From assembly GCA_946610035.1 (NCBI GenBank), contig CAMOCC010000004.1, positions 3,158 to 67,157 of the forward strand: DNA of 64,000 nt, read 5' to 3'. How positions within the stretch are numbered: position 1 is the stretch's first letter; each line of letters begins with the position of its first letter. The DNA comes from an uncultured Verrucomicrobiota bacterium (GTDB lineage Bacteria > Verrucomicrobiota > Kiritimatiellia > RFP12 > UBA1067). Under the pieces are notes generated by a model, which made no database searches, was not told the origin of the DNA, and worked only from the letters and a program-made list of their open reading frames with translations. A program made the position numbers and the translations under genes. This document shows positions 8,372 to 42,705 of this stretch, piece after piece.

Positions 8372-8422
8372 ATTCGGAACGCTTGACAAAGTGCAAGTGG
8401 GTGAATTGTATACTGGAGAGAT

Positions 8423-10426
<2,004 letters not shown>

Positions 10427-26045: not shown

Positions 26046-28283
26046 ATGAAACAGATGAAGATCATCAAGCGCAGCGGCGAGGAGAAGCCGTTTGATATCA
26101 CGAAGATCGCCAACGCGATTCGCAAGGCCAGCCAAGTCGTTGATGTCAAGGATGCGCTTTCAGAGGGTCGCATCAATCTGATTGCGGAGGAGGTCGCAGG
26201 CGTGTGCGCCGGGCGCGACCGCGCAATGACGGTCGAGGAGATTCAGGACGTCGTCGAGTCGAAGATCATGGAGATGGGCTCGCACGAGATTGCGAAGAAG
26301 TACATCGTCTACCGATACAAGCGTGCGCTCGCCCGCAAGGCGAACACGACGGACCAGCAGATTCTCTCGCTCATCGAGTGCAACAACGAGGATGTGAAGC
26401 AGGAGAACTCGAACAAGAACCCGACGATCAACTCCGTGCAGCGCGACTACATGGCGGGCGAGGTGTCGAAGGACGTGTCCGCGCGACTCCTCCTCCCCCC
26501 GGACGTCGTCCAGGCGCACAACGACGGCGTCATCCACTTCCACGACATGGACTACTACGCGCAGCACATGCACAACTGCGACCTCGTCAACCTCGAGGAC
26601 ATGCTGCAGAACGGGACGGTCATCTCGGGGACGATGATCGAGCGTCCGCACTCCTTCTCCACGGCGTGCAACATCGCGACGCAGATCATCGCGCAGGTGG
26701 CGTCCAACCAGTACGGCGGGCAGTCCATCTCGCTCACCCACCTCGCGCCGTTCGTCGAGGTCTCGCGCCAGGCGATTCGCAGGGAGCTCTCCGAGGAGTG
26801 CGCCGAGGCGGGCGTCGAGATGTCCGGCGCGGCGTTCGACGCCGTCGTCGAGAAGAGGGTACGCCAGGAGATCAAGAAAGGCGTCCAGACGATCCAGTAC
26901 CAGGTCGTGACGCTCATGACGACGAACGGGCAGGCGCCTTTCGTCACCGTCTTCATGTACCTCGGCGAGGCGAGGAGCGACGCGGAGCGCAAGGACCTCG
27001 CGATGATCATCGAGGAGGTCCTGAACGAGCGCATCAAGGGCGTCAAGAACGAGCAGGGCGTCTACATCACGCCTGCGTTCCCGAAGCTCATCTACGTCCT
27101 AGAGGAGTCGAACGTCCGCGCCGGCTCGCCCTACTGGTACCTCACCGAGCTCGCCGCAAGGTGCACGGCGAAGCGCATGGTGCCGGACTACATCAGCGAG
27201 AAGAAGATGCGCGAGTACAAGCTCTCGAAGGGCGAGGAGGTCGGCCACGGCGACTGCTACACGTGCATGGGCTGCCGTTCGTTCCTGACGCCCGACCGCT
27301 CCGGCAACGGCTTCGACAACGTCGCGCGCGCCAAGAACTACGAGCCCGGCAAGCCTAAGTACTACGGACGCTTCAACCAGGGCGTCGTCACGCTCAACCT
27401 CGTCGACGTCGCGCTGTCCGCCCACGGGAACATGGACGAGTTCTGGCGGATCTTCGGCGAGCGCTGCGAGCTCTGCCACAAGGCGCTCCGCTGCCGCCAC
27501 GAGAGGCTCCTCGGGACGCTGTCCGACGCGGCCCCGATCCTCTGGCAGTACGGTGCGCTCGCGCGCCTCGACAAGGGCGAGAAGATCGACAAGCTCCTCT
27601 ACGGCGGCTACTCGACGATCTCGCTCGGCTACGCGGGGCTGTGGGAGTGCGTCTTCGCGATGAACGGCAAGAAGCTCACCGAGCCCGAGGGCGAGAAGTT
27701 CGGCCTCGAGATCATGGAGAAGCTCAACGAGTTCACGGCGAAGTGGAAGGCGGCCGAGAACATCGACTACTCGCTCTACGGGACTCCGCTTGAATCGACG
27801 ACCTACAAGTTCGCGAAGTGCCTCCAGAAGCGCTTCGGCGTCATCAAGGGCGTGACCGACAAGAACTACATCACGAACTCGTACCACGTCCACGTGACGG
27901 AGCACATCGACGCCTTCGCGAAGCTCGCGCTGGAGTCGAAGTTCCAGAAGCTCTCGCCCGGCGGCGCGATCAGCTACGTCGAGGTCCCGAACATGCAGCA
28001 GAACATCCCTGCGGTGCTCTCCATCATGCAGTACATCTACGACCACATCATGTACGCGGAGCTGAACACGAAGTCGGACTACTGCCAGGTGTGCGGATTC
28101 GACGGCGAAATACAGATCGTGAAGGACGACGCCGGCAAGCTCATCTGGAAGTGCCCGAAGTGCGGCAACACGGACGAGTCGAAGCTGAACGTCGCGCGAC
28201 GCACGTGCGGCTACATCGGTTCGCAGTTCTGGAACCAGGGCCGCACACAGGAAATCAAGGAGCGCGTCCTGCATGTGAGCTGA
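26046..28283 (+). CDS. nrdD: Anaerobic ribonucleoside-triphosphate reductase
   Basis: ATP-cone N-terminus (MKIIKRSGEEKPFD), C-terminal CxxC Zn site and RRTCGYIG glycyl-radical motif. Confidence 0.95.
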   Translation: MKQMKIIKRSGEEKPFDITKIANAIRKASQVVDVKDALSEGRINLIAEEVAGVCAGRDRAMTVEEIQDVVESKIMEMGSHEIAKKYIVYRYKRALARKANTTDQQILSLIECNNEDVKQENSNKNPTINSVQRDYMAGEVSKDVSARLLLPPDVVQAHNDGVIHFHDMDYYAQHMHNCDLVNLEDMLQNGTVISGTMIERPHSFSTACNIATQIIAQVASNQYGGQSISLTHLAPFVEVSRQAIRRELSEECAEAGVEMSGAAFDAVVEKRVRQEIKKGVQTIQYQVVTLMTTNGQAPFVTVFMYLGEARSDAERKDLAMIIEEVLNERIKGVKNEQGVYITPAFPKLIYVLEESNVRAGSPYWYLTELAARCTAKRMVPDYISEKKMREYKLSKGEEVGHGDCYTCMGCRSFLTPDRSGNGFDNVARAKNYEPGKPKYYGRFNQGVVTLNLVDVALSAHGNMDEFWRIFGERCELCHKALRCRHERLLGTLSDAAPILWQYGALARLDKGEKIDKLLYGGYSTISLGYAGLWECVFAMNGKKLTEPEGEKFGLEIMEKLNEFTAKWKAAENIDYSLYGTPLESTTYKFAKCLQKRFGVIKGVTDKNYITNSYHVHVTEHIDAFAKLALESKFQKLSPGGAISYVEVPNMQQNIPAVLSIMQYIYDHIMYAELNTKSDYCQVCGFDGEIQIVKDDAGKLIWKCPKCGNTDESKLNVARRTCGYIGSQFWNQGRTQEIKERVLHVS

Positions 28284-28367
28284 CAAGACGGTGCGCCCAT
28301 CCGCATCCGTGCGACAGCGGCAGGAAGTACAAGAAGCGCTGCGGGAGGAGCGCTTGAGGAGGATGGT

Positions 28368-28892
28368 GTGAACTACGCCAGTATCAGGACGTGCGACATC
28401 GCGAACGGAGAGGGGGTCCGGGTCTCCCTCTTCGTTTCCGGCTGCACCCACAAGTGCAAGGGGTGCTTCAACGAGGAGGCGCAGAGTTTCGCCTACGGAC
28501 ATCCCTTCACCAAGGAGGTGGAGGACCGGCTCCTCGAAGCGCTGGCGCCGGACTACATCGCGGGGCTCACGCTCCTCGGCGGCGAGCCGATGGAGCCTGA
28601 GAACCAGCGCGGGCTCATCGGCTTTCTGCGCCGGTTCCGCGAGATGTACGCCGGGAAGAAGACGCTCTGGATATACACTGGCTGCATCTACGAACTCGAC
28701 TTGCTGCCGCCGACCGGCGACGCCCTGGGCATGGAGGTCAACTCCCCGCACAAGAAGTGGCGCACGGAGGTGACGGACGAGATTCTCGCCATGACGGACG
28801 TCCTCGTGGACGGTCCCTTCGTCGAGTCTCTCAAGGACATTTCGCTCCGCTTTCGCGGCAGTTCCAACCAGCGGTTGCTGAAACTTCATTGA
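28368..28892 (+). CDS. nrdG: Anaerobic ribonucleotide reductase activating protein (radical SAM)
   Basis: GEGVRVSLFVSGCTHKCKGCFN cluster motif; GTG start; follows nrdD. Confidence 0.9.
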   Translation: MNYASIRTCDIANGEGVRVSLFVSGCTHKCKGCFNEEAQSFAYGHPFTKEVEDRLLEALAPDYIAGLTLLGGEPMEPENQRGLIGFLRRFREMYAGKKTLWIYTGCIYELDLLPPTGDALGMEVNSPHKKWRTEVTDEILAMTDVLVDGPFVESLKDISLRFRGSSNQRLLKLH

Positions 28893-28910
28893 CGGAAGGG
28901 CCGACAGAGC

Positions 28911-29741
28911 ATGATGTCTCTTTTCGAAGGCAGGAAGGTCGGTCTTGCGCTTGGCGTCGGCGGGGCCCGCGGAGCGGCCCACCTCGGCGTGATGCGCGCC
29001 CTCAACCGACATGGAATCAAGATACATTGCGTTGCGGGTTCCAGCAGCGGATCCATCTTCGGCGCCATTGTCGCCGCAGGATGCGTCGACAGGGCCGAGG
29101 AGTATTTCAAGACCCTCTCCCGATGGAAGGCGTGGCGGATGATGTTCGAGCTGAGGCTTCCGCTCGGGGGCGGACTCATCACAGGCAAGCACATCGACAA
29201 GATGCTCCGCGACATCGTCCCGTACACACGCTTCGACGAGCTTAAGATGCCGTTCGCGGCGGTGGTGACCGACCTTTACTCCGGCGACGAGGTCGTCCTG
29301 CGCGACGGCGACCTCCTGAGCGCGGTAAAGGCGAGCTATTCCGTCCCGGGCCTCTTCACCCCGGTGCTGCGCGACGGACGCTGGATTGTGGACGGCGGAC
29401 TCGTGAATGCGATACCGGTGGCGGCGTGCAGGGATATGGGGGCGGACATCGTGATCGGCGTCGACGTGAACCTCGGCAAGAACTTCGCCCGCCACAAGCA
29501 GCAGCCTACGGAGAAGAGCCCCTCGTTCGCACAGGTGTTCGTCCGCGTCTGCAAGATCATAGAGAAGAAGTGGACTCAGAACGTCCTTCTTACGGATCGC
29601 CCGGAGATCCTCATCCAGCCGTCCGTCGGCAACATAATCTCGTCCCGCATCCGCCACATCAACTTCGCCATCCGCGCCGGAGAGGTCGCCGCCGAGCGGG
29701 CCCTGCGCGAATACGCGGGGATTCCGCTCGTCGACGCGTAA
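28911..29741 (+). CDS. Patatin-like phospholipase
   Basis: GVGGARG oxyanion motif, GSSSG serine lipase motif, DGG aspartate motif. Confidence 0.85.
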   Translation: MMSLFEGRKVGLALGVGGARGAAHLGVMRALNRHGIKIHCVAGSSSGSIFGAIVAAGCVDRAEEYFKTLSRWKAWRMMFELRLPLGGGLITGKHIDKMLRDIVPYTRFDELKMPFAAVVTDLYSGDEVVLRDGDLLSAVKASYSVPGLFTPVLRDGRWIVDGGLVNAIPVAACRDMGADIVIGVDVNLGKNFARHKQQPTEKSPSFAQVFVRVCKIIEKKWTQNVLLTDRPEILIQPSVGNIISSRIRHINFAIRAGEVAAERALREYAGIPLVDA

Positions 29742-29751
29742 GCCTCGTCCG

Positions 29752-30405
29752 CTACTTCCGCTTGGATTTGGAGCCGGAGTGTCCGTGCTCGCGCCTCGGC
29801 TCGCTAGAACGCCTCGCGGTGTCGTTCGACCGCCTTGGTTCGCCATGCCGACTCTGGATTGACGCCTTTCTTCCCGGCGTGGGCCTATTGACGGACGGCC
29901 GTGTCGACGGGCGATTGCGGTTCGGCTCCCTGCGCTCAATGTGTCCCTTGCTCGGGGGCTGCGCCGTCGGCTTGTGGTCCGGTTTGGAATGTACCGTCGG
30001 CTTGTGGTCCGGCTTGGGGTGTGCAATCGTTACGGGCTTGGGCGGCGGAGGAGGCATGCGCCGCACCTCTTTCTTTTTGCTGTGACGATGCTTGTCATGG
30101 TGTTTGTCGTGGTGCGAACGCCCCAGCGAGGCTTCAATGTAGATGTCCGGCTCGTCGTAGTACGTCTCGCTGACGTATGTCGGATGGACCGCGGCGTCGT
30201 ACACGGCATCATCGTATAAAACCGGCGATGTTACGACAGGTGTTTCGACAATAGGGGTGGAGACGACAGGGGTGGCGACCGCCGGGGTGTATGTCGCCGG
30301 GGAGTAGACTGAAGTACGGTATGCTCTGCCCATCGGTGAGAAGCATCCGGTCAAGGCCGTTCCTGCGATAGCCGCCGCCAATGCTCTAGTGAAGTTCTTG
30401 TTCAT
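29752..30405 (-). CDS. Hypothetical lipoprotein with basic His/Lys/Pro-rich C-terminal half
   Basis: Lipobox ..ALTGC; KPDHKPT duplicated; only minus-strand gene in this region. Confidence 0.55.
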   Translation of the reverse strand: MNKNFTRALAAAIAGTALTGCFSPMGRAYRTSVYSPATYTPAVATPVVSTPIVETPVVTSPVLYDDAVYDAAVHPTYVSETYYDEPDIYIEASLGRSHHDKHHDKHRHSKKKEVRRMPPPPPKPVTIAHPKPDHKPTVHSKPDHKPTAQPPSKGHIERREPNRNRPSTRPSVNRPTPGRKASIQSRHGEPRRSNDTARRSSEPRREHGHSGSKSKRK

Positions 30406-30567
30406 ATCGCACCTCCGTTCATTGTGTTTCCATCATGTTAGGGAATCGAGCGGAGAGAATCTGACACGCAATGCGTGGATTTGAGGCAGGGCGGGGAAAG
30501 TATTGCCCTGCCTCCCAGATAGCTGCGAGGCAGGAGAAATCTTTCCGCGCCGCTATGCCGGTTTTTT

Positions 30568-30576
30568 TGATATAAT
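30568..30576 (+). promoter_or_regulatory. Extended -10 promoter TGaTATAAT at the left edge of the island
   Basis: Exact TGnTATAAT 24 nt before the remnant ATG 30601; the only promoter-like element seen upstream of the 30763-41821 gene string. Confidence 0.45.
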
Positions 30577-30600
30577 GTCAATGTCTAATTGAGATCTGAG

Positions 30601-30760
30601 ATGTCAAAGATATTCGACAACATTGAGACGAAGTCTGAAGAGGGGCTGCATGCGATCCTGGCGAATGCCGGGGTTGAGCGCGCGGACTTCTGGTCGGGTA
30701 TTTCAACTTGCGCGGATGGAAGCAGGTTGCCGTGACGTATTTGACGAAATGAAGGGTATG
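30601..30760 (+). pseudogene. N-terminal remnant of a PLD-domain/SNF2-type helicase gene (frameshifted, truncated)
   Basis: MSKIFDNIETKSEEGLHAILANAGVERADF then a frame change. The +1 frame reads GYFNLRGWKQVA, which continues the N-terminal signature remembered for this family; similarity is lost after ~30735. Confidence 0.45.
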
Positions 30761-30762
30761 AC

Positions 30763-33700
30763 ATGAGTATTACCGACTATCTGAAGAAGATTCGTGACAA
30801 TGCCTGGAATACGGCGCAGCTCGGACGGGAGTTTGAGAAGTTCGTCAAGAAGTTCCTGTTGACTGAACCATCGTTCAAGTCGCAGTTCTCTGACGTGTGG
30901 CTGTGGAGCGAATGTCCGTTTGCGAATGGCAACGATGTCGGCATTGATCTTGTTGCAAAAAACTTCTTTGGCGAGTATGTGGCGATTCAGGCGAAGTGCT
31001 ATCAGCCGGGCACGCAAGTTGACAAGGCCGATGTCGATACATTCCTCTCGGCGTCGGGTAAGCAGATCGCGCCGGATGGCAAGGCGACCTTTTACTCCAA
31101 TCGCATCATTATCGCAACCAACGACAATTGGACGAGTCATGCGTCCGAGGCGATTGTCGATCAGCAGATCCCTGTCACGCGCATTGGACTCAATCAGATC
31201 CAGAATGCCGCGATAGACTGGGATAAGTTCTTCAAGGGCGAGAAGAAGGTCGTCGTCAAGAAGGAGCTCCGCAAGCATCAGGATGCCGCACTGAAGGATG
31301 TGGTCGAAGGTTTCAAGAAAGCCGACCGAGGGCAGCTCATTATGGCTTGCGGTACGGGCAAGACCTATACCTCGCTCAAGATCGCAGAAAAGCTTTGCCC
31401 AAAGGATGGCAGCGTTCTTTTCCTTGTTCCGTCTATCTCGCTTCTAGGGCAGTCCCTTCGCGAGTGGTGCGAACAGGCGGAGTCGCCTTTGACTGCGTTT
31501 GCCGTCTGCTCGGATGCGAAGGTGACGAAAGACCCGGATGACACCTCGCTCGCCGACCTCGGCTTTCCCGCGACCACATCTGCCGCGCAGCTTGTCGGCT
31601 ATGGCAAGAAGCTCAAGAAGAATCCGCCGAAGGGATTGACTGTCGTATTCTCCACCTACCAGTCAATCTCAGCCGTCCACGAGGCGCAGGAAGCGGGTGC
31701 GTTCGGCAAGTTCGATCTGATCATCTGCGACGAGGCGCACCGCACAACGGGCGCGATCTTCAAGGGACGCGAAGAGTCCGAGTTTGTCCGCGTCCATGAT
31801 GCCAAGTTCATCAAGGGCGTGAAGCGTCTCTACATGACGGCAACGCCGCGCATCTACGGCGAGAACGCCAAGAAGAAAGCAGATGACGAATTCATCGAGC
31901 TTTGCTCCATGGACGATGAGTCCAAGTACGGACGTGAATTCCATCACCTGACGTTTGCGCAGGCAGTCAAGGAGGAGCTGCTGACCGATTACAAGGTGTT
32001 GATCCTTGCCGTGGACGAGAAGGACATGCGCGAACTCCATCTTGCAGATCGCGATGGTGACGGTGAGATAGATTCGGTCGATCAGCTGGCGAAGATCGTT
32101 GGCACGTGGAAGGGGCTCAACAAGCAGATCTACAAGGATGACGAGAAGTTTCTTGGCAACGATTTTTCGCCGATGCGCTCGGCCGTTGCGTTCTCGTCCA
32201 CCATCGCGGACTCCAAGTCTTTCACGGGGCAGTTCAATGCTGTCATTGACGAACACTTTGGCGAGGACGAGAAGTTGCAGCCGGTGGCAATCAATCACGT
32301 TGACGGTGGCATGAACGCACTCTATCGCTCGCGCATGATCGAGTGGTTGCGCGAGGCGAACGAGGAAACGGGATGCCGTATCCTGTCCAATGCCAAGTGC
32401 CTTTCGGAAGGTGTCGATGTCCCCGGGCTGGACGCGGTGATCTTCCTCTCGCCCAAGAACAGCTTTGTCGAGGTCGTTCAGGCCATTGGGCGCGTCATGC
32501 GCAAGGCGCCGGGCAAGCAGCTCGGTTATGTCATCATCCCCGTGTTGATTCCGATGGGGATGGATGCGTCGGAGGCGCTTTCGACCAATAAGCGGTTCAA
32601 GGTCATTTGGGATGTCCTCTCGGCGATTCGTTCGCATGATGAGGCGTTTAACGCGCTTGACAACAAGGTGGACATCATCCGCGTCAAGCCTCCGAAGAAG
32701 CGCAAGCCAAATGTCGGTCCGGGGCCTGGCAATCCTGACGCTGATGATCCCGACGGCGAGGAAGATCCGCCGATTATAATCGACGCCGAACGCTTCAACG
32801 AATACAAGAAGGCGATACAGGCGAAGCTCGTCAAGGCGTGTGGCGAGCACAAGTACTGGAGCGTCTGGGCCGCGGAGATTGCCGATATCGTCCAGACGCA
32901 GATCAAGCGCATCACGGCGCTTTTGAAGGACGAGAAAGGGCCCTACGAAAAGGACTTCTCGAAGTTCCATGCCACGCTGAAATCGAATCTCAACAACACG
33001 GTGACGCGGGATGAGGCGATTGCGATGCTGGCGCAGCAGCTGGTGTCAGCGCCGATTTTCGACGCCCTTTTCTCGGACTACCAGTTCATCCGCAACAACC
33101 CGATTTCCAAATCGCTCGAAAAGTTGCTGGCTCGTCTCAACGAGAACATTGACAAGAAGGATCGCGAGACGCTTGACCGCTTCTACGAGTCGGTGCGCCA
33201 CAAGGCGAGCGACAAGACGACCGCCGCGCAGAAGCAGCAGATCGTCGTACAGCTCTATAACAACTTCTTCAATATCGCGTTCAAGGACACGGTCGAGAAG
33301 CTGGGCATTGTCTATACGCCGGTTCCGGTGGTGGACTTCATCGTGAAGTCGGTGGAGCGCGTCCTCAACAGGCATTTCAAGGCGTCGATTTCGGATAAGG
33401 GCGTCCATATCATCGATCCCTTTACGGGAACAGGTACGTTCATCACGCGCCTCCTGCAGTCGGGCATCATCAAACCGAAGGACTTGCTCTACAAGTACAC
33501 CCACGAGATTCACGCGAACGAAATCGTCCTCCTCGCCTACTACATCGCGGCAATCAACATCGAGTCGGTCTTCCATGACCAGATTGCCGACGGCAAGTTC
33601 CATCCGTTTGACGGCATCGTGTTGACCGATACCTTCCAGCTGGGAGAGAATTCAGATGACTTGCCGGGTATCTTTCCCGAAAACTCCGAACGTGCTGCCA

Positions 33701-34128
33701 AGCAGAAGAAGCTGGACATCCGCGTGGTGATGGGCAACCCGCCGTATAATGTCTCAAAGGGGACAAGTTACCCGAATTTGGAACGACGCATTGCCGAGAC
33801 GTATGCGCAGGGGACTGATGCGGTGAACAAGAATTCACTTTACGATTCCTACATCAAGGCATTCCGCTGGGCGTCTGATCGCATCAAGGATCGTGGAGTG
33901 GTGGCGTTCGTCACGAACGGCGGCTGGCTCGATGCTCAGGCGATGGACGGTTTCCGCAATTCGCTTGTGAAGGAATTCGACCACATCTATGTTTTCAACC
34001 TTCGCGGTAACCAGAGAACACAAGGAGAGGTTTCACGTCGTGAAGGAGGGAAGATATTTGGGTCGGGTTCGCGTACGCCTGTCGCAATTACGATCCTTGT
34101 GAAGACGGGGGGGGGGCGAAATGAATAA
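30763..34128 (+). CDS. Type ISP-like restriction-modification protein, N-terminal part: Mrr-like nuclease + SF2 helicase/translocase + N6-adenine MTase core
   Basis: GIDLVAK..AIQAKCY nuclease-like motif; GTGKT (31351-31365); DEAH (31729-31740); DPFTGTGTF motif I (~33411-33440); NPPY (33736-33747). Confidence 0.85.
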   Translation: MSITDYLKKIRDNAWNTAQLGREFEKFVKKFLLTEPSFKSQFSDVWLWSECPFANGNDVGIDLVAKNFFGEYVAIQAKCYQPGTQVDKADVDTFLSASGKQIAPDGKATFYSNRIIIATNDNWTSHASEAIVDQQIPVTRIGLNQIQNAAIDWDKFFKGEKKVVVKKELRKHQDAALKDVVEGFKKADRGQLIMACGTGKTYTSLKIAEKLCPKDGSVLFLVPSISLLGQSLREWCEQAESPLTAFAVCSDAKVTKDPDDTSLADLGFPATTSAAQLVGYGKKLKKNPPKGLTVVFSTYQSISAVHEAQEAGAFGKFDLIICDEAHRTTGAIFKGREESEFVRVHDAKFIKGVKRLYMTATPRIYGENAKKKADDEFIELCSMDDESKYGREFHHLTFAQAVKEELLTDYKVLILAVDEKDMRELHLADRDGDGEIDSVDQLAKIVGTWKGLNKQIYKDDEKFLGNDFSPMRSAVAFSSTIADSKSFTGQFNAVIDEHFGEDEKLQPVAINHVDGGMNALYRSRMIEWLREANEETGCRILSNAKCLSEGVDVPGLDAVIFLSPKNSFVEVVQAIGRVMRKAPGKQLGYVIIPVLIPMGMDASEALSTNKRFKVIWDVLSAIRSHDEAFNALDNKVDIIRVKPPKKRKPNVGPGPGNPDADDPDGEEDPPIIIDAERFNEYKKAIQAKLVKACGEHKYWSVWAAEIADIVQTQIKRITALLKDEKGPYEKDFSKFHATLKSNLNNTVTRDEAIAMLAQQLVSAPIFDALFSDYQFIRNNPISKSLEKLLARLNENIDKKDRETLDRFYESVRHKASDKTTAAQKQQIVVQLYNNFFNIAFKDTVEKLGIVYTPVPVVDFIVKSVERVLNRHFKASISDKGVHIIDPFTGTGTFITRLLQSGIIKPKDLLYKYTHEIHANEIVLLAYYIAAINIESVFHDQIADGKFHPFDGIVLTDTFQLGENSDDLPGIFPENSERAAKQKKLDIRVVMGNPPYNVSKGTSYPNLERRIAETYAQGTDAVNKNSLYDSYIKAFRWASDRIKDRGVVAFVTNGGWLDAQAMDGFRNSLVKEFDHIYVFNLRGNQRTQGEVSRREGGKIFGSGSRTPVAITILVKTGGGRNE
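34107..34116. repeat. Homopolymeric G10 tract 5 nt upstream of the nested-gene ATG
   Basis: Read directly; encodes GGG at the C-terminus of ORF 30763-34128. Confidence 0.95.
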
Positions 34129-35317
34129 TGATTCAAAACAGCGCAGTGCCGCACTTGGCATTGTCGCCGCCGTCCGCGAAATCAAGGCGGCGATTCTCAG
34201 GACGCGCTACATGGCGGCGCGTCTGGCGAACGCGGAAATGCTCAAACTGTACTTTGGAACAGGTGCGTACGTTTCGGTGAATTCACGTAAAGGAAAGTGG
34301 GGGACCGGGGCAATCGCCGAGATTTCCTCAAGGCTTCAGCAGGAGTTGCCGGGGCTGAAGGGTTTCTCGGAAAGTTCAATCAAAAGGATGCGACGTTTTT
34401 TTGAGGTGTGGTGTCCGGAGGCAATTCGTCAATCGGTGATTGACGAATTGGCGACTGACAGTAGTTTGCCCATGGCAAATCGCCCATCGGCAATGGGCGA
34501 TTTGTCGGGAAACGCCGTCCTTATGGTTGCAGATTCCGAATTTCGCCCATCGACAATGGGCGAAATGTCGGAAGCGGACTTTGCATGCTTTTGCGCTGTA
34601 CCATTCACGCAACACACGGTGTTATTCGAGAAATGCAAGCAGCCAGAAGAGATGTGGTACTACATTCGGCGTGCGGCTACTGAGTTTTGGAGCGTGACCG
34701 CGTTGAAGACGCATATAAGAGCAGGGGACTACAGGCGGCGAGGCAAACTGCCCAACAATTTCGCGCTGACGATTCCCGCGCCGGAACTTGCCGTGAGGGC
34801 GGCAAGGATGTTCTCGGACGAGGTGTTCCTTGAGGGCATCAACGTCGGTGAAGACGAAGGAGACGTCGACGAGAGGCTGCTGGAGCATGAGATCGTAGCA
34901 AACATACGCAAATTCATGATGTCGCTCGGACCGGACTTCTGCTTCATGGGCGAGCAGTTCCGCGTCATAGTGCAGGACGAGGAGCAGTTTATCGATCTTC
35001 TGTTCTACAATCGAGCGCTGAAGTGCCTGATTGCCCTTGAGCTGAAGGGCGGGAAGTTCAAGCCTGCGTACCTTGGACAGCTTAACTTCTATCTGTCCGC
35101 GCTCGATGACAAGGTGAAGAGACCCGACGAGAATGCGTCCATCGGGATTGTCCTGTGTCGCGAGGCGAACAGGGGTTTTGTGGAGATGGCGATCCGCGAC
35201 ATGACGAAGCCAATGGGTGTCGCCGTGTTCCGAAGTGACAAAAGGGTACCCAGGGCCTATCGCCAGCTGGAGCCAATGCTCAAGGGGCTGACAGAGATTA
35301 TGGAGGACCGGTCATGA
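34121..35317 (+). CDS. YhcG/DUF1016-family PD-(D/E)xK nuclease-like protein nested inside the R-M gene
   Basis: ..EEMWYYIRRAATEFWSV..L...I.., C-terminal ..IDLLFYNRALKCLIALELKGGKFKPAYLGQLNFYL.. core typical of DUF1016. Confidence 0.8.
   Translation: MNNDSKQRSAALGIVAAVREIKAAILRTRYMAARLANAEMLKLYFGTGAYVSVNSRKGKWGTGAIAEISSRLQQELPGLKGFSESSIKRMRRFFEVWCPEAIRQSVIDELATDSSLPMANRPSAMGDLSGNAVLMVADSEFRPSTMGEMSEADFACFCAVPFTQHTVLFEKCKQPEEMWYYIRRAATEFWSVTALKTHIRAGDYRRRGKLPNNFALTIPAPELAVRAARMFSDEVFLEGINVGEDEGDVDERLLEHEIVANIRKFMMSLGPDFCFMGEQFRVIVQDEEQFIDLLFYNRALKCLIALELKGGKFKPAYLGQLNFYLSALDDKVKRPDENASIGIVLCREANRGFVEMAIRDMTKPMGVAVFRSDKRVPRAYRQLEPMLKGLTEIMEDRS
34477..34566. repeat. Two 27-bp perfect palindromes (AAATCGCCCAT-CGGCA-ATGGGCGATTT at 34477-34503; ATTTCGCCCAT-CGACA-ATGGGCGAAAT at 34540-34566)
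   Basis: Read directly; outer positions differ between the copies but change in a compensatory way. Confidence 0.9.
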
Positions 35318-36921
35318 GCGCGACAATCCATTATCACGACATCGGCGATTACTTGAGCCGCGAGGAGAAGCTGAAGATCATCGACGACTTCGGCGACATT
35401 TCGGGCATTGAATGGCAGGCGCTTACCCCGGACAAACACGGCGACTGGCTCAACAAGCGCGACAGCGAATTCGACGACTACATCCCGCTCGCGCCGGAAG
35501 AGAAGTTCGACTATCTCTCGAAGAGTTGGTTCACGGTCAATTCATCGGGACTCAAAACTGGAATGGACGACACCGCAACCGGCTATTCGAGACAATGCGT
35601 ACTTGATGCGGTCAAGAAAAAGATTGGCCATTCAGAAAAGCCTAAAACCGTCGAGTATTCCTATCGCCCGTTCAACAAGCAGTGGCTCTACTACGACCGT
35701 GAGACGAACCAACGCCAATACCGCATACCCAATATCTTCCCGCTCGGCGACTCTGCGTCTCTGCGCGAGAAAAAATACCCTAACAAGGTGATATGCGTTA
35801 CAGGCGCTGGCGGTTCTAAAGACTTTTCATGCATCATCACTGACGTGATTCCCGACCTTCATTTCTGCGGCGACGTTCAGGCCTTCCCCTTGTATTGGTA
35901 TGAGGAAATCAAAGCCGATACATCTGTGATGGAACTGCCGGGGCTTGAAAAGCAGAGTGGCTACATCAAGCACGATGCGATCAGCGATTTCATCTTGTTG
36001 GAGTTTCGCAAGATTGCCGGGCCGAGGGTGCAGAAGGAGGACATCTTCAACTATGTCTATGGCGCATTGCACAATCCCGATTACCGCGCCAAATTCGCCG
36101 CGGACTTGAAGAAGCAACTGCCGCGGTTGCCGCTCCCGAAGAATCGCAGGGAATTCGAGAAGATCGAGAAAATCGGACGCGAACTTGCGAACCTTCACTT
36201 GCACTACGAGGAAATCGATCCGTGGCCGCTTGATGAAATTGCCGCGGGCAATATTGATTATCGTGTGGAGAAGATGGCGTGGGCGAAGGACGGCAAGACA
36301 GTCCGCAAGGACATGCTCGTTGTGAATCCGTCGCTCACTCTTACGAGCATCCCGAAGGAAGCGCACGAGTATGTGGTCAATGGCCGTACGCCGCTTGAAT
36401 GGTTGATTGAACGGTATCAGGTTTCCATCCATGCCGAGTCTGGTATCAAGAACGATCCGAACAAGTGGGGAGAGGAACATAATTACCCCGAGTATATCGT
36501 CGAGTTGGTGAAGCGCATTGTCCGGCTGAGTGTCGAGACCGTGCGTTTGGTCTGTGAACTTGGCGACGGCAAGAAGGCTGCCGCGAAAGATACTACACGG
36601 GCACATCCGAGCGCCACGCCGCCGTATTGGTGGAAGTCCGGCAAGTGGGGCGTCGCTTCGCCAATGCCGGAGGGCGGTCATGTCGTCATGGGCCTCAAGC
36701 ACAAATGGTACGACAAGATAGAGGCAGGGCTTAAGCACGAAGAGCAGCGAGAGGTCAAGCCATTCTGGGATGCGAAGCTTGCCGGGCGCAAAGGCAAGGA
36801 GCTCCGCGCCGTGACCTTCATGAAGGGCCAGGCCTCCACGGAGCAAATGACCTGGGAAGTCCTCCGCGTCGATCTCCGCGGCAACTACTACTGCCTCGAA
36901 CTCGGCAAGAGGATTGCGTAA
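35314..36921 (+). CDS. Detached Type ISP/IIG C-terminal specificity (TRD) module fused to an ASCH-like domain
   Basis: YRPFNKQWLYYD, FPLYWY, LHNPDYRAKFAADLKKQLPRLPLP, LHLHYE, EYVVNGRTPLEWL motifs; tail MGLKHKWYDKIEAGLKHEEQRE.. resembles the ASCH/PUA-like fold. Confidence 0.75.
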   Translation: MSATIHYHDIGDYLSREEKLKIIDDFGDISGIEWQALTPDKHGDWLNKRDSEFDDYIPLAPEEKFDYLSKSWFTVNSSGLKTGMDDTATGYSRQCVLDAVKKKIGHSEKPKTVEYSYRPFNKQWLYYDRETNQRQYRIPNIFPLGDSASLREKKYPNKVICVTGAGGSKDFSCIITDVIPDLHFCGDVQAFPLYWYEEIKADTSVMELPGLEKQSGYIKHDAISDFILLEFRKIAGPRVQKEDIFNYVYGALHNPDYRAKFAADLKKQLPRLPLPKNRREFEKIEKIGRELANLHLHYEEIDPWPLDEIAAGNIDYRVEKMAWAKDGKTVRKDMLVVNPSLTLTSIPKEAHEYVVNGRTPLEWLIERYQVSIHAESGIKNDPNKWGEEHNYPEYIVELVKRIVRLSVETVRLVCELGDGKKAAAKDTTRAHPSATPPYWWKSGKWGVASPMPEGGHVVMGLKHKWYDKIEAGLKHEEQREVKPFWDAKLAGRKGKELRAVTFMKGQASTEQMTWEVLRVDLRGNYYCLELGKRIA

Positions 36922-36943
36922 AGTTATCTGAAAGGAGTAAGTC

Positions 36944-39900
36944 ATGAAAATTCTGTCGAACGAGCCAATCGGGAAAGATTTGTTTGAGGGACAATCTCAA
37001 GAACGAATCGCGGATTTGATTTTTAAGAGCTTGGAAGCGGCTCGGAACCCTGGCGATGCTGATGTTCGTATTTCCGGTAATTCAGTTGTGGGGATTGAAG
37101 GTGGTTGGGGATGTGGAAAGAGCAATGTGCTAAAGATATTAGAGACTAAGCTAGATAAGGTGTTGGAAGATAAGAAAAAGGTCTACAGTGTTTTTCTGTA
37201 TGATTTATGGGGAAGGCAGCAGGATTTGCAACGGAAGATCATTCTGCAAGATTTGGCTGCACACTTGAAAAACAAATGCCATATTGATAAGGATAAAGAA
37301 GTACGCGAATTGATTATTAAGAAAACAGAGGTGGGGAAAGAGTTTGTAAAGAAGGGCTTGATTGCGCGATTGCTTCCTGTGGTGTTGAGCGGATTTGTGA
37401 CGGTATTCTTGGCGACGGCGGCATTGAGTAAAGAGGATTGCTGGATGCGAGGTGTCTCGGGATGGTTGGCGCTGAGTGTTGGAGTTGTTGTTTGTGTTTG
37501 TGGGTTGGTGGGAGTTTTGAAATATAAAGATGATGCGTTTGCTGCCATTACGGAGTTCTTGGGCAACATGTTGCTGATTAAGACGAATGGGGCAGAATTG
37601 CCACGTATGATGTATGAGCACCAATACAGCGTAACGGTTTCAGACTTCTCAAAATTATTGACGGAAATCGCAAACGAGTTAGTGGCGAAGGGAAAACATC
37701 TAGTTGTTGTGTTTGATAACATCGATCGGCTGCCAATTGACAAGGTGAAGGAGTTTCTGTCGTCTGCTCATATTTTGTTTGCAGAGCGAAAGGAGACGAT
37801 GTTGACAAATATTCATATCATTATCCCGTTTGATAGAAATAGAATTCTTGCTGCGTTTGAAGGGCAAGATGGTAATGATTATATTAACAAGACATTTGAT
37901 GTGGTCTATCGGGTGGCACCTCCTATCCTAAAGGACTGGGAAAAGTTCTTTCTGGAGATGTATAAAGAGGCAACTGATGATGAACCAGCTCTGCTTGAAC
38001 AGCGTCTTGAAGTTCAAGATGTTTTCAATGTCTTGTCATCATCCCGAGATTTAACGCCGCGGGCAATCATTGCATTTTTGAATTCGATTACGGCTTCTCA
38101 TAATGTTCTTGGAGATAGTGTGCCTATAAAGGCAATTGCGGTGTATGAGCTTGCCTGGAAGCCGTATGAGCAGAAGATGGTTCTTGATAAGGATGAGGCA
38201 AGCAAACCTGAAGCATCGGAACTTAATGAAACGCGGATTAGAAAAGGGTTGTTTATTCCGAATAAGTTGCTTCGAACAAAATATTTGGGCGATGAGAACT
38301 GGCAGAAATGGATGGCTGCTATTGTATTTCAAGTTGAGGCGACACGAGCTGGGGAGATTCTAAATTATAATTTGTTACAGGATGCATTGGAGAATGGCAA
38401 GAGTGATGTTGTTTCGACGATGAGCGATTTGTCGAGTTTTCGGTTGCTGTTTGACAGGGCGCTTAAGGCGGTCCGTAATCCGCAAAATATCCCTACGGCA
38501 ATTCATGACGTGATTGGAGACAATAAGGAGTGGTGCTGGGACAGAGTGAATGAAGTTCGAGGTGCGGATATCGCAGCCGTGAGGAGTTTGTTTCCCGATT
38601 TAGACGAGTGGCATAAGGATATGCTAAAGAATGTAAGTGATTGGCATGGGTATGCGAGTGTTCTTTTGCAGCGAAACAAGCCAATTAAAGAACGAGGTGT
38701 AACTAAGGTCTTGTTTGCGCAAGCCCGTAATGTTGATGATGTTCTGAAAGAGGTTGGACGATCATTGGTCGGGGCGTTTCCGGCTGAAGATGTTGAGCCA
38801 GCACAGTATCTTGAATTGTTGAATGAGGCAAAGGAGCGAGCGTGTGTGCTTGGTTGGAAGTGTGGTGTTGGACAATTTGACAAGTATGTTGTCGGATTGA
38901 TGCAGGCTGGTGGCGGTGGGGCGGCTGGAGCAGCATATGTTCCTGATGATATGATCCCTGGGATGACGCAAACAAAGCAAGCGTTTGAGGGTGTCAGACA
39001 AGTTGGAGATCCCCATGTCACTAATGTAGATTCCGTATTAAAGGTTATAGAACATTTAAGCGAAGGGCGAATCAAGACGGCTCTTGAAAGTCCTTATGTA
39101 TCTGAGTTTGTCAGAGGAAGGCATGTGGCGGATGAGGAGCGTTGTCGTGCGGTTGCCGCGGCTATACGTGGTGGCGTGAGCGTGGAGAATGGTGTGCCAT
39201 TGTTCGAATTCCTGACTGATACAAAGTCAATTCAGCATGCAAAACAATTGGCTGATTTTTTCACCAAATATGTTAGCGAGGAGACATTGCTTGAAAAATT
39301 GGCGGCTAATGCACATTATCCTGTTTATGTGGAGGCGACGAAGCTTCTGTTAATGAAATCAAGGGCAAAGCTGGATCAAAGCAAAGTCGAGATGCTTCTT
39401 GAAGTTTTTGGGATGGCAGTTCAAACGCTTGGCATTGATCCGCAAATTTTGTTGGAACGAATGCCGGAGCTTCCGAAGATTGAGACGGCGAAGCATGAAA
39501 AGTGTTTTAATCATCAGACATTGTCTCAGTTAAAGAAGTGTGGTGGTTCAGTGTGGAATTTCGCGGTCCAATCGGTTAAGGCGAATTTTGACGCCTTTGA
39601 TAAAAATACTTGGATCACGAAATTATCCTCTCCGACTCCGCGATGGACTCCTCGGGCGGCTGTGGATGTCGATTATGCTTGGACTCCCTTGGCTTTAGAA
39701 AGCGCAAAAGATGTTTTGTGCATGGTTGCTACTGGCAAGATCCAAGATGACAAGCTCCCCTCTTCGGAGACGTGGAGCATGATAGTTAGTGATTTTGAAA
39801 GTAAACATGTTGGCGTAGGGGAATGGTTCAAAGATGTAAAAGACCAAATAATTGCCTTCTCTGGCACTATAACAGCTAAGGCATTTGCCTTCCTTGCTCC

Positions 39901-40150
39901 ATGGCTGTTTAAATATGCTTCGTTTGGAGTGAATAAAGATGAGTTGCGTAAGTTGCTTCCTGACGCGACTGTTCGCAAGAACGAAGCTTGCAAGAAGATT
40001 ATGGCAGAGAATAAGGACGCCGTGATGCAAATGTTTAACAAGGGCGATGCGGCAACGCAAGATGCTTTTAGGGCATATGTCACTGCGGAACTTAATGCTC
40101 ATCCTGATTCTCCCTTGTCGGTATTTAAAGAATTCTTGGGCGGCAAATAA
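36944..40150 (+). CDS. KAP-family P-loop NTPase with two TM helices inserted in the NTPase domain; long uncharacterised C-terminal region
   Basis: Walker A GIEGGWGCGKSN; TM pair ..LLPVVLSGFVTVFLATAAL.. / ..WLALSVGVVVCVCGLVGVL..; Walker B LVVVFDNIDRL. Confidence 0.8.
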   Translation: MKILSNEPIGKDLFEGQSQERIADLIFKSLEAARNPGDADVRISGNSVVGIEGGWGCGKSNVLKILETKLDKVLEDKKKVYSVFLYDLWGRQQDLQRKIILQDLAAHLKNKCHIDKDKEVRELIIKKTEVGKEFVKKGLIARLLPVVLSGFVTVFLATAALSKEDCWMRGVSGWLALSVGVVVCVCGLVGVLKYKDDAFAAITEFLGNMLLIKTNGAELPRMMYEHQYSVTVSDFSKLLTEIANELVAKGKHLVVVFDNIDRLPIDKVKEFLSSAHILFAERKETMLTNIHIIIPFDRNRILAAFEGQDGNDYINKTFDVVYRVAPPILKDWEKFFLEMYKEATDDEPALLEQRLEVQDVFNVLSSSRDLTPRAIIAFLNSITASHNVLGDSVPIKAIAVYELAWKPYEQKMVLDKDEASKPEASELNETRIRKGLFIPNKLLRTKYLGDENWQKWMAAIVFQVEATRAGEILNYNLLQDALENGKSDVVSTMSDLSSFRLLFDRALKAVRNPQNIPTAIHDVIGDNKEWCWDRVNEVRGADIAAVRSLFPDLDEWHKDMLKNVSDWHGYASVLLQRNKPIKERGVTKVLFAQARNVDDVLKEVGRSLVGAFPAEDVEPAQYLELLNEAKERACVLGWKCGVGQFDKYVVGLMQAGGGGAAGAAYVPDDMIPGMTQTKQAFEGVRQVGDPHVTNVDSVLKVIEHLSEGRIKTALESPYVSEFVRGRHVADEERCRAVAAAIRGGVSVENGVPLFEFLTDTKSIQHAKQLADFFTKYVSEETLLEKLAANAHYPVYVEATKLLLMKSRAKLDQSKVEMLLEVFGMAVQTLGIDPQILLERMPELPKIETAKHEKCFNHQTLSQLKKCGGSVWNFAVQSVKANFDAFDKNTWITKLSSPTPRWTPRAAVDVDYAWTPLALESAKDVLCMVATGKIQDDKLPSSETWSMIVSDFESKHVGVGEWFKDVKDQIIAFSGTITAKAFAFLAPWLFKYASFGVNKDELRKLLPDATVRKNEACKKIMAENKDAVMQMFNKGDAATQDAFRAYVTAELNAHPDSPLSVFKEFLGGK

Positions 40151-40171
40151 CTCAAAAGTAGGGAGGGGAGT

Positions 40172-41821
40172 ATGTCCGAACGTATTCAGATGATAACACA
40201 TTGGAAGGTGGTGAACCTTATCAATGAACTCGAAAACGGAAATCTGCGCATTCCGCGGTTTCAGCGGGCCTATGTGTGGGAGCCATCCAAGGTCGTCAAA
40301 TTACTGAACAGCATGTACAAGGAATATCCAATCGGGACATTCTTCCTTTGGGAAACGGATAGAGGCATGGAATGCTTTTGCCGAAAGGTTCCGCATTTGG
40401 ATCTTCCTGACAGGCCCGAAGCGGGAAGGTTCTCGTTTATTCTTGATGGCCAGCAGAGAATTACGTCTCTCTACGTTGGGCTTAAGGGCAAAGTCATTGA
40501 GACGAGGGACTATTCAAAGATTTGTTTCAATCTCGACAAAAAGGAATTCAGGATTCCTCGTCCTCGGCCTGAGGCGGGAGACATTCCTGTCTATAAACTA
40601 TATGACGCAACGGAATCCCAGAAACTCGTTGCAGAATACAGTACAACCGGACGAGCCAGTGATGTTCCCGAAATTATCAATTGCAGTACATTGCTGCGAC
40701 AATATCCGTTGAGCGTAATCAAGTCTCTCAACATGACGCTCGATGAAGTTGTGGAAATCTTCGAGCGCATCAATCAGGGCGGCAAGCGATTGTCGCTTTT
40801 TGATCTTGTCCATGCTTCGGTTTGGTCTGAGGATTTCGATCTGCGGGAGAAGATAGAGGAAGTCAATGCCGAACCCGCGATTAAGCTTTTCGGCGAAATC
40901 GGCGCGGAGATTTTCACGCAATCGCTTGCGCTGAATATTTCAAATGATTGCACAAACCGACATCAGTTGGAGTTGACCAATCAGGATTGCCGCACACATT
41001 GGAAGCGCACGGTGGAGTGTATCAGGCTCGCCGTTGATTTCATAAAGAACTTCGGCGTTCAGCAAATGGCGATTATCCCATATCCTAGTTTGTTGGCAAT
41101 CGTCCAGCACTACTTCTTTGTGGCGGATAAGGATGTGATTGTACAAGATGACAAGGCGTTGATTTCTGATTGGTTCTGGACAGCGACGTTCTCGCAGCGG
41201 TATTCGAGCTCGACTTTGTCGCGGATGAACGAGGACGCCGTTTGGATACGAGACCTCATCGGCGGGAATAAGACACCGCGTGTCTTCGCGGTTAAACTGA
41301 CCCTGTCCGATTTGCGCAAGGCGCGGATGAATCAGCGTTCTGTGATTAAGAATGGCGTATTGTGCATAATGGCTATGAATGCGCCGGTTGATTTTGACAA
41401 TGGCGATGTTGTTACGTTAGATAAGACGAATGCTTCGCGTGCGAACTCCAAGGAGAACCATCACTTCTTCCCGTATTCGCTTTATGGAGAATTCGCGCTC
41501 ACGAAGAACGACATCAATTCTGTCTTGAACTTTGCATTCATTTCAAAGAGACTTAATGGCGAAATTCTCAACAAGAAACCATCGGTGTATTTGGCCAAAT
41601 ATGAGGCGGCCAATCCTCGGATCGGTGATAATCTGATGCTTCATTACATTACGTCAGATGCATTTGCTGCGGCGAAGCGCGATGACTTCGAAACCTTTGT
41701 CAGCATTCGCGGCACAAGCTTATTAAACAAGATAGAGGAGCTTTGTCGCGTGAATGACAATGTTGAGACTCTTTCTGCCGCAACGATTGATGTGGACGAT
41801 GATGCGGACGAGGAATCATAA
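40172..41821 (+). CDS. DUF262 (ParB-like NTPase) protein with C-terminal His-Me/HNH-like module (GmrSD-family, type IV restriction-like)
   Basis: LRIPRFQRAYVWEPSKVVKLLNSMYKEYPIGTFFLW (DUF262); C-terminal ..KENHHFFPYS...NSVLNFAFISKRLNGEILNKKP. Confidence 0.75.
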   Translation: MSERIQMITHWKVVNLINELENGNLRIPRFQRAYVWEPSKVVKLLNSMYKEYPIGTFFLWETDRGMECFCRKVPHLDLPDRPEAGRFSFILDGQQRITSLYVGLKGKVIETRDYSKICFNLDKKEFRIPRPRPEAGDIPVYKLYDATESQKLVAEYSTTGRASDVPEIINCSTLLRQYPLSVIKSLNMTLDEVVEIFERINQGGKRLSLFDLVHASVWSEDFDLREKIEEVNAEPAIKLFGEIGAEIFTQSLALNISNDCTNRHQLELTNQDCRTHWKRTVECIRLAVDFIKNFGVQQMAIIPYPSLLAIVQHYFFVADKDVIVQDDKALISDWFWTATFSQRYSSSTLSRMNEDAVWIRDLIGGNKTPRVFAVKLTLSDLRKARMNQRSVIKNGVLCIMAMNAPVDFDNGDVVTLDKTNASRANSKENHHFFPYSLYGEFALTKNDINSVLNFAFISKRLNGEILNKKPSVYLAKYEAANPRIGDNLMLHYITSDAFAAAKRDDFETFVSIRGTSLLNKIEELCRVNDNVETLSAATIDVDDDADEES

Positions 41822-41833
41822 ATATTTTGGCAT

Positions 41834-42145
41834 ATGGCAGACAGAGATGACATATTAAAGGAGCGGCAAGAGCAGGAGTATCTTGGCATCTGGTGGATTC
41901 CCGGTGACGACGCCGAGCAGCGCAATGTCTCTGGGGTCATGCGAATTGCCGAGGGCGAAAAACTGGATCTGTAACTCTTGGGCACCTTTTCGCCGGGCGA
42001 AAGGCAATTTGCCTTTGAGAATTATCCTGTCGTCAATGGCGCAAGTCATGGGTTAAAGCGATTTACAATGTTCGATGTGTCGGTTGTGGGTCGGGAATCT
42101 AACGGATCGGAACCTGCAGAATTGGACGAAACCAAGCTTTGGTGA
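41834..42145 (+). pseudogene. Remnant of an ApeA-like N-terminal domain gene, interrupted by an in-frame TAA (41972-41974) and truncated
   Basis: Own translation: ..YLGIWWIPGDDAEQRNVSGVMRIAEGEKLDL*LLGTFSPGE..YPVVNGASHGLKRFTMFDVSVVG..; the pattern resembles ApeA-type NTDs; no HEPN part follows. Confidence 0.35.
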
Positions 42146-42148
42146 ATA

Positions 42149-42412
42149 TTGACCAAACCAACCGCGGCTAATGTCTTGAGGATGTATTCACTCTTTGGCT
42201 TGGATCAAAGTTTCTCACGGCTGCAAGTGGTCAAGGAAATGCCCATGAAGCGTGCTGCTGCATGGAAGTTTCTCGCGAAGCTGCACAAACTCGGTTTGAC
42301 GGAGCCAGTGCTAGGTGAGGGACGTGGGCATAACGGCATCACAAGGGTCGCGCCCTGGCGCAAGGCCGGGGGCGGCCTTGCCACATCATGCGGCGCGGTA
42401 AAAAAAACGTAA
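42149..42412 (+). pseudogene. Probable orphan winged-helix C-terminal fragment
   Basis: ..FSRLQVVKEMPMKRAAAWKFLAKLHKLGLTEPVLGEGRG.. looks like the wHTH tail of larger regulatory or defence ATPases; TTG start, no SD, ends in A8/A10 runs. Confidence 0.25.
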
Positions 42413-42705
42413 AAAAAAAACGTAGTGACTTTTCGTCCGAATTATGGTTTACTATGTGACATATCGCGAGGAATTGTGTAACCTTTTCCGCGCGATGTGT
42501 ATACAGGGCAGAAACGGCTTCGACGCATACAACAGGAGGCAAGACCATGTCTGTCAATCTAGACAGTGCGCAGTTCAGGCAGTTCGTGCAGTTCGCCGAA
42601 CGCCAGGCAAACCCCGCTAACAGCGAAGCTCACGGACGTCCATTTCGGACAGACCGTCGAAGCGCCCGTGTTGAAAGACAAGGTCAACGTAGGCTACGTC
42701 AGAGT

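Follow-up and report, generated by a model that had tools for sequence, protein, structure and literature searches.

Type ISP restriction-modification (R-M) enzymes are defined as a family by their single polypeptide (PMC3874165). In a 64,000-nt stretch of DNA from an uncultured member of the Kiritimatiellia (Verrucomicrobiota; contig CAMOCC010000004.1; this whole stretch is called the window hereafter), we found a Type ISP enzyme whose parts lie on two open reading frames (ORFs), ORF1 and ORF3, with a complete gene of the DUF1016/YhcG family, ORF2, between them. Compared with LlaGI and LlaBIII (structures 5ffj and 4xqk), the two ORFs together show identical domain order and motifs and align end to end, including across the break. 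They differ in forming two polypeptides, cut in a loop of the methyltransferase (MTase) domain about 50 amino acids (aa) before the target-recognition domain (TRD), in the foreign gene between the halves, and in an extra C-terminal tail on the TRD piece.

Of the defence genes embedded in Type I R-M, BREX, DISARM and Hma systems, 96.7% lie in the same orientation (Payne et al. 2024; 10.1101/2024.01.29.577857). The locus described here resembles those embedded genes, such as PrrC in EcoprrI, in shared orientation and operon-like packing, and the cargo families PDC-S02 (DUF1016), PDC-S05 (RhuM), PDC-S13, SoFic-like and Schlafen/AlbA_2 are common to both. The cargo of Payne et al., however, sits between separate genes of multi-gene systems, whereas here it lies inside one split gene, and ISP or IIG hosts are not mentioned in that study (10.1101/2024.01.29.577857). 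DUF1016 genes adjoin Type I and Cj0031-type IIG systems, and in Type I systems embedded genes of this kind usually sit at the M/S junction (PMC9881135). Type I hsdM and hsdS also place the MTase and the specificity module on separate, translationally coupled genes, a comparison that includes an engineered EcoKI M-S fusion (PMC3510504); the ISP cut differs in leaving part of the MTase fold on the 'S-like' polypeptide while the R and M functions are still fused, and the ISP TRD is a single half-site reader. The Type IIB/IIG enzymes BcgI and BsaXI likewise pair a nuclease-MTase polypeptide with a separate specificity polypeptide (PMC11997821). They lack an ATP motor and embedded cargo, however, their nuclease and mode of cleavage are different, and their S subunit is a complete domain and not a fragment that completes a fold.

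For a split ISP enzyme, for embedding in an ISP gene or for DUF1016 combined with an ISP enzyme, no published description was found within the limits of the searchable literature, in agreement with a preliminary description of this locus, whose author was aware of no DUF1016 gene bisecting a single-polypeptide enzyme. The known parts are Type ISP restriction-modification and defence-gene embedding; what appears to be new is their combination, which breaks the defining feature of the family. In phages, free-standing homing endonuclease genes, for example those in nrd genes, leave the host ORF as two functional polypeptides. The present locus is similar in having a nuclease gene within a host ORF and two apparently functional polypeptides remaining, but its slot is not tied to one nuclease, the cargo is diverse and mostly non-nuclease, and there is no evidence of homing.

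Domain content and junction of the split enzyme

ORF1 (30763-34128, + strand, 1121 aa) is the N-terminal polypeptide of the split enzyme. It contains an Mrr-like PD-QxK nuclease (Mrr_cat_2, aa 34-162, 7e-39), a superfamily 2 (SF2) translocase (ResIII/Helicase_C, aa 167-581), a coupler (ISP_coupler, aa 698-821, 9e-41) and a gamma-class N6-adenine MTase (Eco57I/N6_Mtase, aa 827-1080) up to the last hairpin loop. ORF3 (35314-36921, + strand, 535 aa), the C-terminal polypeptide, continues the MTase domain over its first ~50 aa (IHYHDIGDYL...), followed by the TRD (Type_ISP_C, aa 81-398, 1.5e-82) and a conserved tail (aa ~400-535). Between them lies the embedded cassette gene ORF2 (34121-35317, + strand, 398 aa), which encodes a DUF1016_N plus YhcG_C protein resembling PD-(D/E)xK nucleases. 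The Pfam E-values of the three ORFs all fell within 1e-24 to 1e-82. The catalytic motifs of Type ISP enzymes were all found in ORF1, namely PD-QxK as GIDLVA60...AIQAK74, Walker A as GTGKT197 with DEAH323, the FxGxG motif I as FTGTGTF887 and motif IV as NPPY992. Both Pfam and the collinear alignment with 4xqk and 5ffj gave the Type ISP order of nuclease, translocase, coupler and MTase on ORF1 and TRD on ORF3, while the single chain of the family is replaced by two ORFs with a 1.2-kb gene between them. Similarly, ORF1 matched positions 3-1163 and ORF3 positions 1318-1641 of the PADLOC model REase_MTase_IIG (PDLC03597, 1646 positions). A Type I R-M system was considered and rejected, the R and M functions being fused on ORF1 and the NCBIfam Type I models scoring far below their cut-offs.

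The three genes overlap at both edges of the cassette slot. The ORF1 stop and the ORF2 start share 8 nt at the 5' edge (34121-34128, + strand), and the ORF2 stop and the ORF3 start share ATGA at the 3' edge (35314-35317, + strand), with GGAGGA 8 nt upstream. This ATGA design at the 3' edge was found with DUF1016, with Fic (L089 and L102; loci used for comparison carry L numbers) and with the L011 cassette. The preliminary description had placed the ORFs, their termini and both overlaps correctly. Pfam domains, motif positions and the alignment likewise bear out its account of Type ISP domain order and motifs in ORF1, of a complete, co-oriented DUF1016 gene overlapping both neighbours, and of an ISP enzyme divided into a nuclease-motor-MTase polypeptide and a specificity polypeptide.

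The ORF1 and ORF3 concatenate aligned to LlaBIII (4xqk) with E=0 as one HMMER stretch (query 19-1226) through the break, and also to LlaGI (5ffj) with E=0. At the junction, the indel is 0-4 residues relative to LlaGI, LlaBIII and 7lo5: LlaGI has ...SILVKDDSDNHE, a four-position gap and VHYHDIGDYL, and the window has ...TILVKTGGGRNE and, across the break, MSATIHYHDIGDYL. This seamless alignment indicates that no segment is missing or duplicated, confirming the earlier claim that ORF1 and ORF3 are contiguous parts of one ISP protein. The cut had also been placed at the MTase/TRD boundary, and this needs correction, as the break lies inside the C-terminal loop of the MTase domain, at about LlaBIII residue 1150-1156 and roughly 50 residues ahead of the TRD core, which begins at residue 1205 (PMC4872093). 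The MTase recognition loops I-III end by residue 1138 in LlaGI numbering, upstream of the break (PMC4872093). The position of the break relative to the TRD start therefore puts the cut in a length-variable surface loop in the C-terminal part of the MTase domain, and ORF3 contributes the strand IHYHD and ~45 further residues before the TRD. In an AlphaFold2 model of ORF3 (predicted local distance difference test score, pLDDT, 66.7), aa 5-7 form an orphan beta-strand followed by a helix, and this N-terminal strand may complete the MTase sheet in trans.

The ORF1 tail contains a G10 homopolymer (34107-34116, + strand), located 4 nt 5' of the ORF2 ATG. The corresponding tract of relatives, GGGGGAGAAGG, has 11 nt, 1 nt more, and the window version is the derived one. 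In L093 (a near-identical locus), L009 and L005, ORF1 ends in ...TGEKAK with an ATGA overlap, whereas the shorter G tract has moved the window stop to a TAA two codons beyond that overlap and changed the tail to ...TGGGRNE, a trivial effect on the protein. The same missing nucleotide explains why ORF1 and ORF3 share a reading frame in the window but not in L093. The common frame pointed out in the preliminary description is thus real in the window but incidental, and the different frames in L093 rule it out as a hint of read-through or bypass. A G9 allele would be predicted to fuse ORF1 to ORF2 in frame. The G10 tract may be phase-variable, may stem from a recent mutation or may be an assembly error.

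Recurrence of the break and turnover of the embedded genes

A search with ORF3 gave 1624 homologues, and among the best 120, which were examined, 82 were complete standalone TRD proteins with a median length of 470 aa. The standalone homologues begin no more than 15 residues from the I[HY]YHDIGDY motif. Scans with the TRD alignment detected at least 580 genome loci and at least 572 metagenome loci, and the best 80 of each were classified. The enzyme was split at 6 of 79 species-representative genome loci and at 5 of 77 metagenome loci, with one more metagenome locus having adjacent halves without a cassette, and fused at the rest, so that overall ~7% of the related ISP loci classified are broken in exactly this loop. 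In an index-free search of 1.84 billion representatives of 50% clusters, 11-15 standalone, 18 full-length fused and ~30 partial fused proteins were found among ~63 classifiable hits; these proportions are rough, as the motif-based classification missed 87 of 150 divergent or fragmentary representative hits. In plasmid records, judged by annotation only, the entry is nearly always an intact 'type ISP restriction/modification enzyme'.

The break point is always in the same loop, with ...ILVKxxxx and a stop on one side and Mxxx-I[HY]YHDIGDYL on the other, and was found in Kiritimatiellia, Bacteroidota, Termititenax, Spirochaetota, Betaproteobacteria and others. Split loci occupy at least five separate places in a neighbour-joining tree of motor-MTase-TRD sequences, several of them with fused sisters, and this scatter indicates that gain, loss or transfer of the split occurred repeatedly. 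The layout is therefore not a one-off. The preliminary description had considered that the arrangement might turn out to be common and already described; a split ISP enzyme with an intragenic cassette slot is indeed common, but it appears to be undescribed.

The slot holds at least 10 unrelated cassette types, and the cassette genes are on the same strand as the enzyme at all split loci classified. DUF1016 (PDC-S02) cassettes are present in the window, L093 and L059 and decayed in L009, so the search for other DUF1016-interrupted ISP genes that had been proposed was successful. DUF4172-Fic (SoFic-like) cassettes occur in the Kiritimatiellia loci L005 and L089 and in L102, Schlafen-type AlbA_2+HATPase_c_4 cassettes in L001, the Termititenax locus L008, L052 and L104, and RhuM or ORF6N (PDC-S05) cassettes in L048 and L147. 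A 205-aa PDC-S13 protein is found in L092, a toxin-antitoxin-type pair of a Gp49-like toxin and a helix-turn-helix (HTH) protein in L132, and small gene pairs in L057 (633-1284) and L091 (2670-3360). L090 carries a 641-aa TPR-like protein (5037-6962) and L011 a 281-aa 23S-IVP-like/zinc-ribbon protein (8159-9004). The cassettes of L090, L011, L057 and L091 have no or only weak Pfam or PADLOC assignments, and their genes are candidate new defence genes by position. The two extremes of the slot are L173, with a 3.6-kb cassette of 4-5 genes (DUF3800, a SIR2-like protein, a protein of no assigned family and AlbA_2-Fic_C), and L163, with no cassette, where the split ISP halves are 82 nt apart and the gap is possibly the scar of cassette loss. 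Most of these cassette families are among the candidates that PADLOC gained from the work of Payne et al. on embedded genes of BREX, DISARM and Type I R-M systems (10.1101/2024.01.29.577857).

Close relatives differ in what the slot contains. The DNA of the window and that of L005 are ~85% identical as far as the stop of ORF1, and the same holds from the ATG of ORF3 onwards, but the genes in between are unrelated, DUF1016 in the window and Fic in L005. L010, which like L009 and L011 comes from a Kiritimatiellia metagenome-assembled genome and is 86% identical in ORF1, is fused and uninterrupted (...AITILVRTKDGNGKGVIHYHDIGDYL). In L009, a 246-aa DUF1016 remnant (1204-1944) retains first ~110 and last ~70 codons that are ~97% identical to the window DUF1016, while the nuclease core is deleted or replaced and the flanking ISP halves are intact. 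Within the Kiritimatiellia clade, the slot follows a regular pattern, in which the start codon of the cassette overlaps the TGA of ORF1 and its stop codon the ATG of ORF3, giving ATGA at both ends of the slot independent of the cassette carried. Between relatives with different cassettes, pairwise ratios of nonsynonymous to synonymous substitution (dN/dS) were 0.07-0.12 for ORF1 and 0.04-0.23 for ORF3 (dS 0.5-2.6), and both ISP halves are under purifying selection.

The DUF1016 cargo and its relationship to the enzyme

ORF2 scored above the Pfam gathering cut-offs for both domains of its family (DUF1016_N, 6e-24, 85.1 bits against 32.8; YhcG_C, 6e-44, 150.1 bits against 32.5), and its sequence retains a D...ExK-type core, FIDLLFY290...ALELK305. 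It also matched the PADLOC PDC-S02 model PDLC04795 (3e-103), and with its co-oriented nesting between the ISP halves has the profile of a PADLOC embedded candidate. No solved relative of DUF1016 was found by sequence search of the PDB, and no tandem repeats were found in the cassette. The N-domain (window 34440-34640, aa ~108-170) has an insertion of ~50 aa relative to the Pfam model and L059, which carries an imperfect internal repeat (NRPSAMGDLS... / FRPSTMGEMS...) and is common to the copies embedded in Type III loci.

The closest homologues of ORF2 are those of L093, which has the same layout (97% aa identity), and proteins with 98% and 79% aa identity encoded between mod (N6_N4_Mtase) and res (ResIII) in the Type III loci L094-L101. 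Copies near-identical to ORF2 (up to 98% aa) lie in Type III mod/res in L094-96, for example in the locus at 4348-9887 of L094, and the DUF1016 genes embedded in L094-L101 overlap res or lie no more than 5 nt from it. Between the window and the Type III copy, identity is ~97% at the nucleotide level but covers the gene core only (~34170-35250), the ends and flanks being locus-specific. This restriction to the core looks like exchange or gene conversion between resident cassettes and not like transposition of a defined element, and the near-identity of DUF1016 in ISP and Type III loci suggests that the same cargo serves different R-M types.

Taken together, we assign a probability of about 0.72 to the reading that the locus encodes a functional two-polypeptide Type ISP enzyme and that the MTase loop repeatedly serves as a slot for defence genes that are exchangeable and translationally coupled. 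The ORF1 polypeptide carries the nuclease, the ATP-driven translocase, the coupler and nearly the whole N6-adenine methyltransferase, and the ORF3 polypeptide supplies the final piece of the methyltransferase fold and the TRD. The two halves may reassemble by strand complementation into a LlaGI-like enzyme, which would be expected to methylate one strand of an asymmetric site and to cleave unmodified DNA upon head-on collision of two translocating enzymes. The variable loop hosts unrelated single- or multi-gene, putatively anti-phage cassettes in many bacterial lineages, and the shared orientation and usual ATGA stop/start overlaps suggest that the cassettes share a transcript with the enzyme and that their translation is coupled to it. 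DUF1016 is most likely exchangeable cargo that, like PrrC in EcoprrI, hitch-hikes on the R-M enzyme, shares its regulation and acts as an independent or back-up defence effector; it is probably not a subunit of the enzyme.

Several points weigh against this reading. Assembly of the halves and their methylation and restriction activity we infer from sequence. The defence role of DUF1016 is that of a PADLOC 'candidate' (PDC-S02), and a literature search found no experimental validation of it. The 5' junction of the window itself is atypical, with G10 and an 8-nt overlap in place of ATGA, and could be an assembly error or a recent mutation. The split frequencies were taken from the 80 best-scoring loci of each collection, a choice that favours relatives of the window TRD, and the neighbour-joining tree carries no support values. 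In addition, 0 of 26 ISP loci on viral contigs were split, so the slot is not universal.

It is conceivable, though we regard it as doubtful, that the ISP loop is a dedicated landing slot whose ATGA-bounded cassettes are exchanged between ISP enzymes and between ISP and Type III systems, with the cargo functionally wired to the enzyme. In a guard version, the DUF1016 nuclease would be kept inactive by the ORF1-ORF3 complex and freed when phage anti-restriction proteins disrupt that complex, comparable to PrrC. If so, the split would give the enzyme a specificity subunit that can be swapped and, at the same time, a second line of defence of the guard type. A weaker extension of this idea is that variation in the length of the G tract (34107-34116) could toggle between separate and fused ORF1-DUF1016 products.

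The preliminary description proposed a three-polypeptide system, which in its strict form would be an obligate enzyme with DUF1016 as an integral accessory nuclease subunit acting with the ISP halves. The tight stop/start overlaps on both sides of ORF2, the PD-(D/E)xK-type motif kept in DUF1016, its presence in the split ISP enzymes of two distant lineages (the window with L093, and L059) and its habitual linkage to R-M Types I, IIG and III (PMC9881135 and the loci found here) fit such an enzyme. Nevertheless, we consider it unlikely, because close relatives have other, unrelated genes at this site (Fic in L005, L089 and L102, TPR in L090, and others), the ISP halves are intact and constrained where DUF1016 is internally deleted (L009), absent (L163) or was never present (the fused L010), and a 98%-identical DUF1016 serves in a Type III locus and so is not ISP-specific. 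Cargo that is interchangeable, dispensable and shared with Type III systems does not favour a three-polypeptide system, and neither the obligate system nor a specific partnership of DUF1016 with the enzyme is upheld.

The nuclease-like character of DUF1016, an insertion precise enough to leave the host gene usable, and copies ~97% identical at the nucleotide level in both ISP and Type III mod/res loci, two R-M settings without relationship to each other, might instead point to a selfish element akin to a homing endonuclease gene, which would enter R-M genes and leave the host gene in pieces. To our knowledge, DUF1016 is not among the recognised homing-endonuclease families. A homing endonuclease pairs one nuclease family with one target site, whereas the same slot is occupied by at least 10 unrelated, non-nuclease cassettes and DUF1016 is also found at Type III mod/res. 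The near-identity between the ISP and Type III copies stops short of ends and flanks, and no flanking repeats beyond ATGA and no intron or intein signal were found. This makes a selfish element quite improbable.

Inactivation of the enzyme by the DUF1016 insertion, with the halves as decaying pseudogene fragments, is very unlikely. An interrupted 'single polypeptide' enzyme is a classic pseudogene signature, and the window junction has a homopolymer indel, but both halves are full length with all motifs, their dN/dS is 0.04-0.23, a proper ATG and Shine-Dalgarno sequence stand at the break, and the layout is retained in different phyla, broken each time in this loop. No Rfam family matched at E<=0.1 over 30000-42500, indicating no intron or riboswitch, and scans for sigma-70 promoters and terminators (30200-42600) found no internal terminators above chance, with counts no higher than in shuffles and hence uninformative. 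The low dN/dS together with the lack of terminators and of an intron argues against pseudogenisation. That a chimeric contig or frameshift error produced the apparent split is scarcely credible, since, although the junction G10 homopolymer is the type of site at which long-read assemblies err, a frameshift cannot create a 1.2-kb DUF1016 gene and the same three-gene layout is present in independent assemblies (the metagenome-assembled genome of L093 at NCBI, L009, and the contigs with P0121 and P0123).

A functional two-polypeptide enzyme would mean that Type ISP enzymes are not bound to a single polypeptide ('SP') and have one permissive cut site within the MTase fold. This natural split point could be used for subunit swapping and specificity engineering, a stated goal of structural work on LlaGI (PMC4872093). 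The slot would also extend 'guilt by embedding' from intergenic gaps to the interior of a gene, with standalone Type_ISP_C genes as a simple search handle for new candidate defence cargo. The near-identical DUF1016 genes in ISP and Type III loci suggest a cassette pool shared across R-M types, and the three-gene system would make it experimentally tractable to ask why defence genes nest within R-M operons, whether for co-regulation, hitch-hiking or guarding.

The ORF3 tail and the surrounding region

The tail of ORF3 (window 36514-36918, aa ~400-535) is a conserved extension of ~115-135 aa past the ISP model. It is absent from LlaGI/LlaBIII and most other ISP TRDs but nearly invariant in the Kiritimatiellia clade (TPPYWWKSG...HVVMGLKHKWYDKIEAGLKHE...). 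No Pfam match to the tail was found at E<=1, and its AlphaFold2 models (pLDDT 28-69 in the whole-ORF3 model and 49 in the tail-only model) were too poor for a fold search; a resemblance to ASCH/PUA-like domains, guessed from the sequence, found no support.

The region 3' of the TRD gene (36944-41821) encodes a 1068-aa KAP-family P-loop NTPase with weak PifA/QatA-like PADLOC matches and a 549-aa GmrSD_N (DUF262) protein. In L005, a GmrSD_N gene lies directly 3' of the TRD gene without the KAP gene. The G+C content is 0.43-0.48 in 36944-41821, 0.52-0.56 in the ISP genes and ~0.63 in the flanks, differences that suggest a composite defence island. On the other side, a 975-aa ORF on the - strand (27099-30026), antisense to nrdD, nrdG and a patatin gene, was rejected as a gene; its product is Arg/Ala-rich and of low complexity, an artefact to be expected in flanks of ~63% G+C.

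Upstream of the ISP start codon, L093 and the window are homologous over only ~75 nt (~30690-30766), which sets the left boundary of the module that they share. The ISP ATG is overlapped by a 47-aa ORF (30623-30766), of which L093 conserves no more than the last ~20 codons, so that a conserved leader is more probable here than a gene. In L001 and L008, a small HTH gene is located upstream of the split ISP genes.

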